The position numbers and the translations under genes are program-made. From Candidatus Omnitrophota bacterium (lineage in GTDB: Bacteria > Omnitrophota > Gorgyraeia > Gygaellales > Profunditerraquicolaceae), in assembly GCA_030693145.1 (NCBI GenBank), contig JAUYBI010000041.1, positions 10,228 through 74,227 of the forward strand: a stretch of DNA of 64,000 nucleotides. The letters are read 5' to 3'. The notes below the pieces were generated by a model. It ran no database searches and was not told the origin of the DNA. It saw only the letters and a list, made by a program, of their open reading frames with translations. This document shows positions 48,001 through 51,000 of this stretch, piece by piece; position 1 is the stretch's first letter; every line of letters starts with the position of its first letter.

Positions 48001-51000
48001 TATACCACAAAAAGGTCAATGATAATAATTATGAAAGCAATCAGGTAAGGGATAACGTTATCCATATAAATTTAAATTTATTTCCTCCCTTTTATGACCC
48101 AGAGGAAAATAATAAGAGCCAGTATACCCGCCAAAATATAGAAGGTCAAAAGATTCATTATTCTGCTTTTGAGATAACGTTCCTAAATTCCCGATTTGGC
48201 GCTGCGGACACGGGAAAGAAATTGATAGATTTAGGCATGGACCGGAAGGTTAATATTCAAATGCCCCAATTTTTCAATCGGCATCTTTTGGCTTACATCG
48301 AGAATTTCAATTCCGAAGAGTTTTCCGTTTTTGTCAATATCTATGAGTATTCCATCGCGCAGTTTACGGGTTTCTTTAGCCTTGCCGCTCTGGAATTGAA
48401 TATACAAAGCATCCGCCTCTTGATCAAATCTTATTTCCATAATCTATCCCCTCTCTTTAAGCCAGTAAGTAGTAATAATAACTATTTCTCCATCAAGGTT
48501 TTTATAAACAACCTCAAGCTTTTTAGTTCCGAAATCTTTCTTAGCGATATGATCTCCTCCAAAACTAGAATGTATTTTGTCAGGATGAGCGATAGTGTTT
48601 TCGATTTGTTTCTTAGAAAGTTACCTTTGATTTATCCGAAGATTAGCATGTTTGGTATAGATGAATTTCACAATAAAAACCGTATCATGCCTGCGATGAT
48701 AAGTCAAGATGGATTTGCCGCCAGCGCGCAAGGCCTTGACGGCGGCGCGTCAGTTAAATCGGAAGAAATAAAACCGTTTCAAATTATTTCTATGATAGTC
48801 AGAGACGGCAACACTGATGGCAAAAAAGAAAATCAGCCAGAAATAGATGTGTCTTTTGAGATTGCTAAAAAATTATTAGAATCGTTGGAAGTAGAAAAAG
48901 ACGGTTACATTTACGAGATAAGAGTTTGTAAGTTTGATTTCGCAGTCCCAGAAATAATGAGAAAAATATCTAGTTATGTTTCATCTTCAGATTTCAGTGA
49001 AACTATTTCTTATATATTCAACGTAAGAAACGATGTTTCAGGAGTAGAATTATTAGAATATATATTAGAAAATAGGGAGATTGCTGTTTTTGATGATACT
49101 CTGATAGAAATTGGGCAAAGAAAGGGTGTGTTTCATCAAGAGGCTAAAAATGAAATAATGTCTGTTTTAGACAGGTTGAAGCAGGGAATTGTTTCAGAAT
49201 GTGCAATTGTGCCTCATTCGGAGCAAACTATAAAGGATAAAGCAGAAAAGAAGATTCTTGAAGTGTTAGCTGAAATATCCAGAGGAAGGGGCGCTTTGTA
49301 TTTCTGGCAAGAAACTTTCTATAAAATTATTGAAGAATTTGGTTCCGCTGCTATTGATTTTATCTTAAAGAAAATTAGTGATGCTGAAAATAATGACTTA
49401 AGGTATTTTGCTAATTGTTGCCTGACCACTGGGATATTGGGGCAGAACAATGAAGAGAAAAGAAGAGAATGTTATAGCGAAGTATTTGAGTTTTATAGAA
49501 ACAGAATAAATAACACAATTCCTTTAGATGAATTATTCCATATTCTGAGATGGGAAACACGTAGGCTGAGCAGTGTAGTTGTTCCTGCCAGTTTATTTAA
49601 CAGTATAGAAGATATTAAATATCTAATTAAAGCCGGACAAATGTCTCAATTCTATGGCCCCGGTTATTATATCCCTAGCGAAGATGTTTTTGAAATTATT
49701 ATAGATTTTTATCCTTCGCCATCTAATTGGAACACAACACAGCGATTTTATTATATATTTACGCCCGAAATACCCTCTGTAGATACGCCTGCACCTTACT
49801 TCCAAGTAAAAAAGTTAAAATTTTGCGAATATGGATTGTATGAAAAAGAATTAGCTTGCGAAAGCCTGTCTATGGAAGATATGGATTCGTTGCGAAAGAA
49901 ATTTAATGATAAAGATGGCCTGGTTATAATTACTAAAGGTGTTAGAGGCGCTATTACGACGGTTGTGCCTACGCTAGGCTTGCATATGCATTCTCATAAT
50001 GATGGCAGGCGTGGCCCATCTCTTGAAGATTATTTAGATTATGAAAGATTTAATTTTGATAAGGATGGGGGAGAATTAACTGGTGAAAAGCAAGAGAAGG
50101 AAAATATTTCTAATTTAATTGTGACAGTGGATACGGAAAGAGACGGCGGTGAGTCAGCCATTATTATTGATATTGGCGCAGGATATGGCGGCGTAGCGAA
50201 GTATTTAGCAGGGAAATTCCCAGCCTCTCGGAGAATAGCTTTGGAACCGGAAGTTGACGAAACCGCGTGGCTTAAGAAGTATATAACGAGGGACGTTTCC
50301 CAAGGGGACACCCTTGACCGCTCAGCGCGCCTTGACGGCGGAGATTTGAATAAGGGAATTTTACTTGAGAAGTTTAATAAATTCTTCTACGGAGAGTCCA
50401 GCACCTTTGAGAATAGAATAGAGTGTTCCAGGTTTAATGGTTTTGGAGCCGTGAACTGGAACTATACAGCGTCTATTCAGGTCGGTTTGATGCCGCATAA
50501 TAACATGGGAGCCGCTTTGGCGTTTAATAAAAAATCCGTGCTTTTCAAGGGCACGGATAACCTCTTTGCCAGAGACATGTGGCAATTTGGTCATACAGAA
50601 ACCTCTATATCTCTTAATTCGACCTCTACGTCAGATTCCGGAATTGGCAATTTATCATCTTTCAATGACCATAGATACAAATTAACTGCCTCTTTAATAT
50701 TAGCCAATGCCTCTTCTGTGGTTTCTCCTTGGGAAGCGCACCCGGGAAGCGCCGGAACATGGACAGAATATCCACCCTCGACCTCACTTTCAATAATTAC
50801 CTTAAGGTGCCTCAACATATTTATACCTCCTACTTATAAAAATACAATACATTTATCCCCAAGTCAAGGTAAAACTTCAATTCCTCTTGGCAGGCAGGCT
50901 AGTTTTGGCCGTTCAGCGCGCCTTGACGGCGGCGCCAAAGTTAAAAACCAGCGCTCCAGAATACTTGTTGAGCTGGAAATTGCTAAGGAAAGATTTGAAA

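Follow-up and report, generated by a model that had tools for sequence, protein, structure and literature searches.

The window analysed here is a stretch of 64,000 nucleotides (nt) from a Candidatus Omnitrophota bacterium (assembly GCA_030693145.1, contig JAUYBI010000041.1, positions 10,228 to 74,227), and our subject is the giant open reading frame (ORF) that runs through it, together with the toxin-antitoxin (TA) operons that lie on the opposite strand of that ORF. Over this full length, plus frame 3 (codons starting at positions divisible by 3) holds no stop codon; the stops number 1,838 in plus frame 1, 2,294 in plus frame 2 and 712-1,500 in the minus frames. The GC content is 35-45%. Pfam scans of the giant frame placed about 30 families along it, none of them dominating: DegT aminotransferase, B12-radical SAM (rSAM), APS kinase, PHP, CofD, a complete phosphoglucomutase (PGM), two copies of phosphoglucose isomerase (PGI), shikimate dehydrogenase, 6PGDH, 6PGL, a PRK / uridine-kinase-like domain, ARMT1, a complete hexokinase, methyltransferases, His phosphatase, amidohydrolase, OMP decarboxylase, SIS, PEMT and HEAT repeats. 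The PGI modules score 1536 bits against Pfam, summed over the two copies, and the hexokinase module spans the whole enzyme, with about 50% identity to free-standing bacterial hexokinases of 440-455 amino acids (aa). Both the length, at least 10,000 codons, and the tiling of one stop-free frame over tens of kilobases by many enzyme families agree with the multi-enzyme metabolic cluster giant ORFs of Omnitrophota (class 1), which reach 147,155 aa and for which PGM, rSAM, methyltransferases, hexokinase and HEAT are named (bioRxiv 10.64898/2026.06.07.730766); giant genes have also been described in bioRxiv 10.1101/2023.11.21.568195. For the embedded TA genes, the nearest relatives are from metagenome-assembled genomes (MAGs) of Omnitrophota, the phylum for which such ORFs have been described; the window itself holds no marker gene. 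The window is part of a giant ORF of this type.

The giant frame is crossed by five TA operons in the region from 44.2 to 51.9 kb, here called the island; all are on the minus strand, and their Pfam-confirmed genes lie inside the frame. Four of the five have a promoter-like site, a Shine-Dalgarno sequence (SD) of their own, or both. We call a TA gene aligned when its codons are in register with plus frame 3 and offset (3,1,2) when the register is shifted by one base. HicA, DUF2283, DUF433 and the DUF4258 pseudogene had been described as aligned, and rechecking of the coordinates bore this out; the four offset genes share one common register, in which a codon of the giant frame is paired with the third position of one TA codon and the first two positions of the TA codon that follows. 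The giant frame and the TA genes are as follows.

3..63998, plus strand: giant stop-free frame, at least 21,332 codons, both ends open at the window edges
44294..44566, minus strand: DUF5647 gene, offset (3,1,2); PF18882, E 7.8e-22; AAGGAGG SD, with a promoter-like site further upstream
44559..44804, minus strand: DUF7718-like short ORF upstream of DUF5647, aligned; a weak identification (PF24839, E 1.9e-4, below the curated cut-off)
45633..45782, minus strand: HicA remnant, aligned; stops in its own frame; 49-nt repeat shared with the hicA 3' end
45701..45925, minus strand: HicB-like gene of a second, decaying hicBA cassette, offset (3,1,2); PF15919, E 3.5e-08
45953-45925, minus strand: promoter-like site of the HicB-like gene, TTGACT-17-TATATT
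48231..48440, minus strand: DUF2283 gene, putative antitoxin, aligned; PF10049, E 1.1e-17
48444..48680, minus strand: DUF4258 toxin pseudogene, aligned; PF14076, E 9.4e-09 across an internal stop
50361..50594, minus strand: HicA toxin gene, aligned; PF07927, E 5.7e-22, 78 bits against a cut-off of 27
50591..50818, minus strand: HicB antitoxin gene, offset (3,1,2); PF15919, E 1.5e-11, 45 bits against a cut-off of 27
50825..50867, minus strand: hicBA promoter-like site and SD, TTGACT-17 nt-TATTTT at 50867-50839 and AGGAGG about 7 nt before the ATG; the -35 box is Ser-Gln in the giant frame
51191..51568, minus strand: DUF5615 (PIN-like / Mut7-C) gene, offset (3,1,2); PF18480, E 6.2e-23
51558..51782, minus strand: DUF433 gene, putative antitoxin, aligned; PF04255, E 4.5e-22
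51839-51811, minus strand: promoter-like site of the DUF433 gene, TTGACT-17-TAGACT, plus an AAGGAGG SD

The hicBA operon, in the order hicB then hicA with a 4-nt overlap, has a common upstream promoter-like site and SD, and this promoter-like stretch falls within the approximately 500 nt that are conserved between cassettes of different genomes. Its HicA domain, the adjacent HicB and the Gly-Ser-His core of HicA (G28-S29-H30, invariant in alignments of 18 and 27 homologues) place the pair with the HicAB systems, with toxicity and neutralisation putative. HicB is short, with 75 aa that cover only positions 3-58 of the 123 in the HicB-like profile. In the DUF4258 pseudogene, a nonsense codon TAA (48623-48621) takes the place of a codon that specifies Gly or Glu in four orthologues; in the giant frame the site is TTA (Leu), which leaves that frame open. 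The giant frame is likewise open across the HicA remnant, which was identified by its similarity to hicA and lies within an antisense-frame blastp match that includes 45633-45782; a Pfam scan of the remnant gave no match. The best promoter-like site of the island (44746-44718, 11/12 matches) lies within the DUF7718-like ORF. Judged from these signals, the TA operons of the window are predicted to be expressed.

The preliminary description had proposed that the codon usage of these antisense genes carries the imprint of selection for an open opposite strand, because a stop in the giant frame arises wherever an aligned gene uses TTA, CTA or TCA. Our recounts reproduced its figures exactly: the eight Leu codons of HicA are CTC (four), CTT (two), CTG and TTG, those of DUF2283 are CTC (three), TTG (three), CTG and CTT, and neither gene has a TCA. 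As it had also stated, TTA is the commonest Leu codon of the bulk ORF, at 39%, followed by CTT (22%), TTG (18%), CTG (9%), CTA (7%) and CTC (6%), and TCA makes up 18% of Ser codons. The host ORF thus uses TTA, CTA and TCA heavily, and a genome in which CTC and CTT dominate Leu and the three forbidden codons are generally rare is not what the 64-kb window presents. In HicA, DUF2283 and DUF433 together, none of the 22 Leu codons is TTA or CTA and there is no TCA. The likelihood calculation that the preliminary description had suggested, made with the stop-avoidance formula for a codon-aligned frame (bioRxiv 10.1101/724807) and bulk frequencies, gave 2.3e-7 for these three intact aligned genes. 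When seven TA genes were resampled synonymously with bulk usage, 21.3 stops were expected in the giant frame and none is seen (joint P ~1e-13), the chance of staying open being 0.001 to 0.11 per gene. Across the whole island the giant frame has no stop, and the other five frames have 85-252.

Aligned genes that lack TTA, CTA and TCA and a giant frame that is open are logically one and the same finding, so independent evidence must come from the offset genes, which serve as a control, and from comparative data. The offset genes of the same operons use TTA or CTA for 18 of their 47 Leu codons (13 TTA and 5 CTA) and have five TCA codons besides; HicB has TTA, CTA and TCA once each, and DUF5615 has eight TTA, one CTA and two TCA. 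In their register a giant-frame stop depends on pairs of neighbouring codons instead, and it is these pairs that are restricted. In eight offset genes, taken from the window and from locus L003 of assembly GCA_016235185.1 (loci from other genomes are designated by L numbers), the codon before TAN ends in A 15 times, in G four times and never in T or C, and the codon before CAN ends in C 24 times, in G four times, in A twice and never in T. HicB of the window obeys this rule. In the aligned genes, T and C endings occur freely before TAN and CAN. Offset genes follow a dicodon rule of their own that aligned genes do not, so that the imprint is frame-specific, as selection on the opposite frame requires.

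We then compared the TA genes with orthologues outside giant ORFs, as the preliminary description had advised, counting the forbidden codons TTA, CTA and TCA among Leu and Ser codons. Embedded orthologues were available from independent assemblies (13 for HicA and 15 for DUF2283). In HicA the forbidden codons number 0/174 in the 13 embedded genes and 83/303 in 27 free genes with a GC content of at most 0.48 (Fisher p = 4e-19); in DUF2283 they number 0/143 in the 15 embedded copies and 49/245 in free genes with a GC content of at most 0.50 (Fisher p = 3e-11). Free homologues of similar GC content thus have forbidden shares of 27% (HicA) and 20% (DUF2283), and even the close free HicA relatives L005, L011 and L014 have forbidden codons at 7 of 41 positions.

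Alignment of nine embedded HicA orthologues revealed how differently the two frames are constrained. Substitutions at HicA codon positions 1, 2 and 3 number 662, 380 and 1531. In the HicA frame, non-synonymous divergence (pN) is 0.19 and synonymous divergence (pS) is 0.72, which is saturated, giving a pN/pS of 0.26; in the giant frame across HicA, pN is 0.32, pS is 0.30 and pN/pS is 1.05. At the amino-acid level the copies share 71% identity when read as HicA and 39% when read in the giant frame, and none of them has gained a stop in the latter. The toxin is therefore under purifying selection and the giant-frame peptide is not conserved. Complete turnover of the synonymous sites has brought no stop into the giant frame, which means that selection on openness continues and is not a filter that operated once at insertion. 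The giant frame has also stayed open across the decayed DUF4258 gene and the HicA remnant: openness outlasts the function of the nested gene. Both frames are open over the whole overlap, as in antisense overlapping gene pairs. Purifying selection at the amino-acid level, sought in both frames as a sign of dual coding, was found in the HicA frame only; the giant frame is constrained to be open and poor in Cys.

The arrangement recurs in many genomes. HicA relatives were found at 75-91% identity, and those that bear an organism name are Omnitrophota MAGs; the nearest relatives (79-91%) stem from Omnitrophota MAGs or from metagenome records, and the label Planctomycetia is attached to some that are less similar. 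In L002 (a 96-kb scaffold from ENA), L003 and L004, the frame antisense to hicA is stop-free across the whole locus, up to 20.2 kb, and L003 carries nine TA genes. An alignment of distant HicA homologues (A1) proved too diverse for the locus search, and a closer set (A2) was used. A scan limited to a single genome for each species covered 14 close HicA relatives, with identities of 61% or more. Of these, 11 lie antisense to, and in codon register with, a frame that is open to at least one end of the locus; in nine of the 11, no stop interrupts that frame anywhere in the locus. The 46 distant homologues belong to other phyla and are all free, their antisense open spans being no longer than 540 nt. 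DUF2283 relatives in JGI metagenomes (53-84% identity) are likewise embedded in giant frames (L065-L068, L072, L075, L087, L101, L104 and several short contigs). Nested TA operons are thus a conserved feature of the giant ORFs of this bacterial group. Among 46 TA-gene matches inside giant frames, from 19 loci, all 46 are antisense, 32 being aligned, 13 offset (3,1,2) and one offset (2,3,1). A plausible reason for this bias is that only the aligned antisense register would let all stops be avoided by synonymous choice, the other registers forbidding some dipeptides. The single (2,3,1) case is a DUF2283 copy in L076 (10001-10201), which lies in the third register of a 12.5-kb open frame and has two TTA/CTA/TCA codons in its own frame.

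No retrieved locus matches the window beyond 190-500 nt of TA genes and short upstream regions; vertical inheritance with decayed flanks and cassette mobility would predict the same pattern at these loci, which would not tell the two apart. No relatives of the cassettes were found among viral contigs, and a database search with the giant-frame peptide across hicBA returned two short matches only. In L001/L005 (9777-10231), a close hicBA relative whose hicA has one TTA stands between two separate large opposite-strand ORFs, which encode 334 aa and 1852 aa; another, of at least 1351 aa, lies farther out. Where other loci have a single open frame, this one may be a split version of a giant ORF. 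At giant-ORF loci, gene callers settle on the giant ORF or on the nested TA genes and not both: in L002 (1-10231) a gene call of 24,373 aa ends 8.7 kb short of hicBA and the open frame in between is uncalled, and in L003 the public calls are the TA genes only. This either-or calling probably affects both giant-protein lengths and TA counts in databases, and the inventories of both are likely miscounted. A look-up of the exact HicA sequence of the window found no record, as expected if gene callers mask HicA.

One part of the proposal had to be revised. The preliminary description had read the enrichment of CTC, which makes up 10 of the 22 Leu codons of the three aligned genes, as the signature expected from stop avoidance. 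The enrichment is real: among allowed Leu codons the CTC share is 35% in embedded and 19% in free HicA (p = 0.011), and 26% and 14% in embedded and free DUF2283. Stop avoidance does not single out CTC, since CTC, CTT, CTG and TTG all suffice. At fourfold sites, A falls from 26% in free to 10% in embedded genes and C rises from 24% to 43%, so that the CTC excess belongs to a wider A-to-C shift at third positions. The shift is strongest at GCA and ACA, the complements of which, TGC and TGT, are Cys codons in the giant frame. GCA and ACA together number 5/93 in embedded and 50/152 in free HicA (p = 1e-7), and 3/92 and 37/127 in embedded and free DUF2283 (p = 2.5e-7); the host ORF uses GCA at 28% and ACA at 29%, and the offset genes of the window use both as well. 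Across the island the Cys content is 0.8% in the giant frame and 1.8-3.4% in the other five frames, and it is 0.56% in the rest of the ORF. Avoidance of Cys codons would be a second, weaker imprint, and it suggests that the read-through peptide is kept poor in Cys and hence is made. An origin of the C-ending excess in the mutational neighbourhood of the codons was considered and rejected by reasoning, because lethal neighbours should not deplete allowed codons at equilibrium; it is also disfavoured by AAA, GAA and CAA, which are not depleted.

The giant frame is further marked by a short recurring motif. The tripeptide Asp-Gly-Gly (DGG) occurs 53 times in it, against 5.8 expected (9.2-fold), and is by far the most enriched tripeptide; GACGGCGG encodes 30 of the 53 sites although GAT makes up 77% of Asp codons. 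Examples lie at 20163, 21807, 34449, 35802, 41976, 50334 and 50925. All 53 sites fall outside the recognised modules. As these modules make up 29% of the window, 15.4 sites were expected within them, and a count of zero arose in none of 20,000 randomisations. Many sites adjoin module ends, often within 150 nt: DGG stands 21 nt before and 54 nt after PGM, and 21 nt before and 30 nt after hexokinase, and the hexokinase module plus its flanking motifs has the length of the free-standing bacterial enzymes. The sequence at the start of PGI copy 2 resembles the N-terminus of free PGI. DGG therefore looks like a module junction or a processing mark. Each TA operon occupies a DGG-to-DGG segment of its own, and the segments and the extended form of the motif are as follows.

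44211..44219, plus strand: left boundary motif GACGGCGGG (Asp-Gly-Gly) of the DUF5647 segment, in frame; partner motif at 44817-44825
45537..45995, plus strand: segment of the decayed hicBA cassette, DGG at 45537 and 45987
47952..48746, plus strand: segment of the DUF4258 pseudogene/DUF2283 cassette, DGG at 47952 and 48738
50295..50342, plus strand: extended junction motif GTTTCCCAAGGGGACACCCTTGACCGCTCAGCGCGCCTTGACGGCGG(A), reading ...DRSARLDGG, which starts 18 nt beyond the hicA stop
51165..51911, plus strand: segment of the DUF433/DUF5615 cassette, DGG at 51165 and 51903

The extended motif of about 47 nt occurs at three junctions, the one listed and those with the related copies at 50886-50933 and 51864-51911, and partial copies stand at 48733-48746, 52456-52469 and 54579-54605. 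Five junctions were folded for an attC- or terminator-like structure and none was found, with z-scores of -0.67 to +1.63, no better than shuffled sequence. An SD-like role of the DGG motif was also rejected, there being no consistent start codon downstream. Other giant frames have motifs of the same kind: DGG is enriched about 7-fold in L002 and DGS about 6-fold in L067, Ser-Ser-Pro recurs in L003, L008, L010, L012 and L087 (AGCTCGCCG being the commonest coding in L003 and L087) and Ala-Ser-Pro in L006, L065 and L066 (mostly GCCTCGCCG), the latter two tripeptides being 10-21-fold enriched in those giant frames. In L003 the motifs flank homologous TA cassettes (for example at 9709, 10258, 10858, 14812 and 15682). 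Cassettes of different genomes are homologous from about 50 nt upstream of their first start codon as far as their last stop codon, a stretch that leaves out the motif, so the motif belongs to the host array and not to the cassette. A recurring Ser-Gln-Gly (SQG) stands before the junction motif because the -35 box region CCTTGACT of the TA promoters (50862-50869, 45948-45955 and 51834-51841) reads Ser-Gln-Gly in the giant frame.

Altogether, it is very probable that the giant frame is held open across the backwards TA operons by continuing selection on its openness, much as the preliminary description had suspected; the offset-gene control, the codon usage of the host ORF, the contrast between embedded and free copies, the saturated synonymous sites and the decayed cassettes all support this. 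The giant frame would be read straight through the five opposite-strand operons, and a stop in it would truncate the polypeptide and probably also uncouple translation from transcription over the tens of kilobases downstream, so that variants creating TAA, TAG or TGA in the giant frame would be removed. The cost would be borne by the TA genes as synonymous choice: the aligned genes do without TTA, CTA and TCA, and in the offset genes TAN is never preceded by a codon that ends in T or C, nor CAN by one that ends in T. Purifying selection continues on the TA proteins, and the giant-frame peptide is free to vary as long as it is open and poor in Cys.

Several points weigh against this interpretation. 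Translation of the giant frame across the island, and truncation or polarity as the cost of a stop, are presumed from the DNA sequence. Codon usage was judged against three backgrounds, namely the 64-kb ORF, the offset TA genes and the homologues found in other genomes. Since the embedded homologues are mostly from other lineages than the free ones, lineage codon usage could account for part of their contrast; the within-operon control and the three free relatives that are close to the HicA of the window lessen this concern. The promoter-like sites of the island, 26 against 23.3 in shuffled sequence, are not more frequent than expected. Finally, the excess of CTC and other C-ending codons and the avoidance of Cys codons exceed what stop avoidance alone explains.

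Openness might, alternatively, owe nothing to translation: assembly or recombination at the DNA level could build or tolerate only stop-free, in-phase cassettes, with the giant ORF not being one translated unit. The conservation of junction motifs as nucleotides (GACGGCGG in this window, AGCTCGCCG and GCCTCGCCG in other lineages), the junction-to-junction segment of each TA operon and the pN/pS of about 1 of the giant-frame peptide across HicA would all fit such a process. We nevertheless regard it as unlikely, because no mechanism is known that would clear stops from a single frame that is not translated, because the giant frame in the island is as poor in Cys as the rest of the protein, with Cys codons avoided, which points to a peptide being made, and because the enzyme modules score strongly against Pfam, hexokinase over its entire length. 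A second alternative, an insertion filter in which only TA cassettes that happened to lack antisense stops were inserted, with no later selection on the frame, draws on the sharp end of inter-genome homology at the cassette borders, which fits mobility, and on the close free relative in L001/L005, which has only one TTA and uses CTC, as though the cassette lineage were pre-adapted. Yet the forbidden codons are absent from all 13 HicA and 15 DUF2283 embedded copies in spite of a saturated pS of 0.72, spacers and decayed cassettes are as stop-free as the genes, and the offset partners use TTA, CTA and TCA freely, so that donor usage was not generally free of them; this makes the filter a very improbable sole cause. 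That the codon-aligned antisense frame is always the most open, and that small genes lack TTA, CTA and TCA by luck, is refuted by the resampling and comparative counts: long antiparallel ORFs in frame -1 of prokaryotes are indeed treated as needing a test against chance (bioRxiv 10.1101/724807), and high-GC free homologues sometimes lack forbidden codons over antisense spans of 500-800 nt, but the window has 35-45% GC with TTA as its top Leu codon, the two P values are 2.3e-7 (three aligned genes) and ~1e-13 (seven genes), the frame runs open for 64 kb here and, in most close relatives, from end to end of loci as long as 20 kb, and free homologues at similar GC have antisense spans of at most 540 nt.

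The statistics of antiparallel stop avoidance are established: codon-aligned antisense stops come from TTA, CTA and TCA, and those of other frames from dicodons of the NNT|CAN type (bioRxiv 10.1101/724807). Antisense ORFs such as HIV-1 ASP opposite env (PMC8781085) and asa of EHEC (PMC6294744) have the same geometry and call for the same test. In contrast to them, the nested antisense genes here are the ones that belong to well-known families and the host frame is the giant ORF; the constraint is one-sided, with the host frame only kept open (pN/pS about 1); and whole operons with promoter-like regions are overlapped, in an arrangement that is conserved across many genomes. The TA genes resemble type II operons (hicAB, DUF433 with DUF5615, DUF4258 with DUF2283) in their Pfam domains, paired small genes, promoter-like sites or SDs, overlaps of 4-11 nt in the two intact pairs and loss of the toxin first on decay. 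They differ from them in lying inside a coding frame instead of an intergenic region or island, in the hicB-then-hicA order, in the short HicB and in the codon restriction imposed by the opposite strand. A text search of both giant-gene preprints, which did not extend to the junction motif, found no mention of stop codons, opposite-strand genes or TA operons nested in giant ORFs, and a search of bioRxiv 10.64898/2026.06.07.730766 found none of polyproteins or cleavage. A literature search combining antisense, toxin-antitoxin, giant and Omnitrophota found no report of the nested arrangement among the papers listed, and TA operons nested backwards in giant ORFs appear to be an undescribed layout.

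The superintegrons of Vibrio are cassette arrays in which TA cassettes with promoters of their own stabilise the array. The giant ORF resembles integron arrays in its discrete modules, short conserved junctions and interspersed TA operons with promoter-like sites; by this analogy, a large locus that is prone to recombination could plausibly owe protection against deletion to its TA modules. Unlike integron arrays, the five folded junctions have no attC-like hairpin, a single frame is apparently read as translated, and the motif is in phase and lineage-specific. No integrase family is among the Pfam matches of the giant frame, which come from general scans, none of them aimed at IntI or attI. 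The position of TA operons at motif-delimited junctions suggests how such genes are assembled, processed and stabilised. We tentatively envisage giant ORFs as translated cassette arrays in which sense genes and antisense TA operons have been spliced in phase at ORF-specific motifs; these motifs might serve as recombination sites, polyprotein processing sites or both, the antisense segments might be excised as junk peptides, and the TA operons might stabilise the locus. This is one possible scheme, and by no means the favoured one.

The locus amounts to a natural experiment, in which two overlapping codes are under different selection on the same DNA and the cost is visible codon by codon, replicated across genomes. 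Openness across foreign backwards genes and dead cassettes is also strong, if indirect, evidence that giant ORFs are real translated units and not artefacts of annotation.

Eight other minus-strand ORFs of the island (46998-47168, 47552-47707, 49623-49805, 50039-50311, 50864-51082, 52172-52717, 53181-53393 and 53493-53669) have no Pfam match. The Ser/Pro/Leu-rich minus-strand ORFs, considered as genes, were rejected, as they have no Pfam match and resemble antisense artefacts of a purine-rich frame.

Further observations concern the enzyme modules. A database search with the hexokinase module matched free-standing enzymes and vertebrate hexokinases and was uninformative on taxonomy. The two full-length PGI modules (24294-25835 and 29640-31272) are 79% identical, with raised GC and reduced GC skew, which looks like a module duplication or a recent acquisition. 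The OMP decarboxylase (42000-42305) matches only positions 3-104 of the 221 in its profile, the next DGG being at 42396, and a methyltransferase motif-I-like fragment within 50142-50333 ends at the junction before the hicBA cassette; both appear to be truncated modules, consistent with cassettes cut or inserted at junctions. Four tandem copies at 52566-53034, spaced by about 114 nt and 61-70% identical to the reference copy, are HEAT-like repeats in the giant frame. Finally, the same stretch of 25 residues follows two DGG motifs that lie 3.2 kb apart (12525-12600 and 15759-15834), which suggests a duplicated module start.

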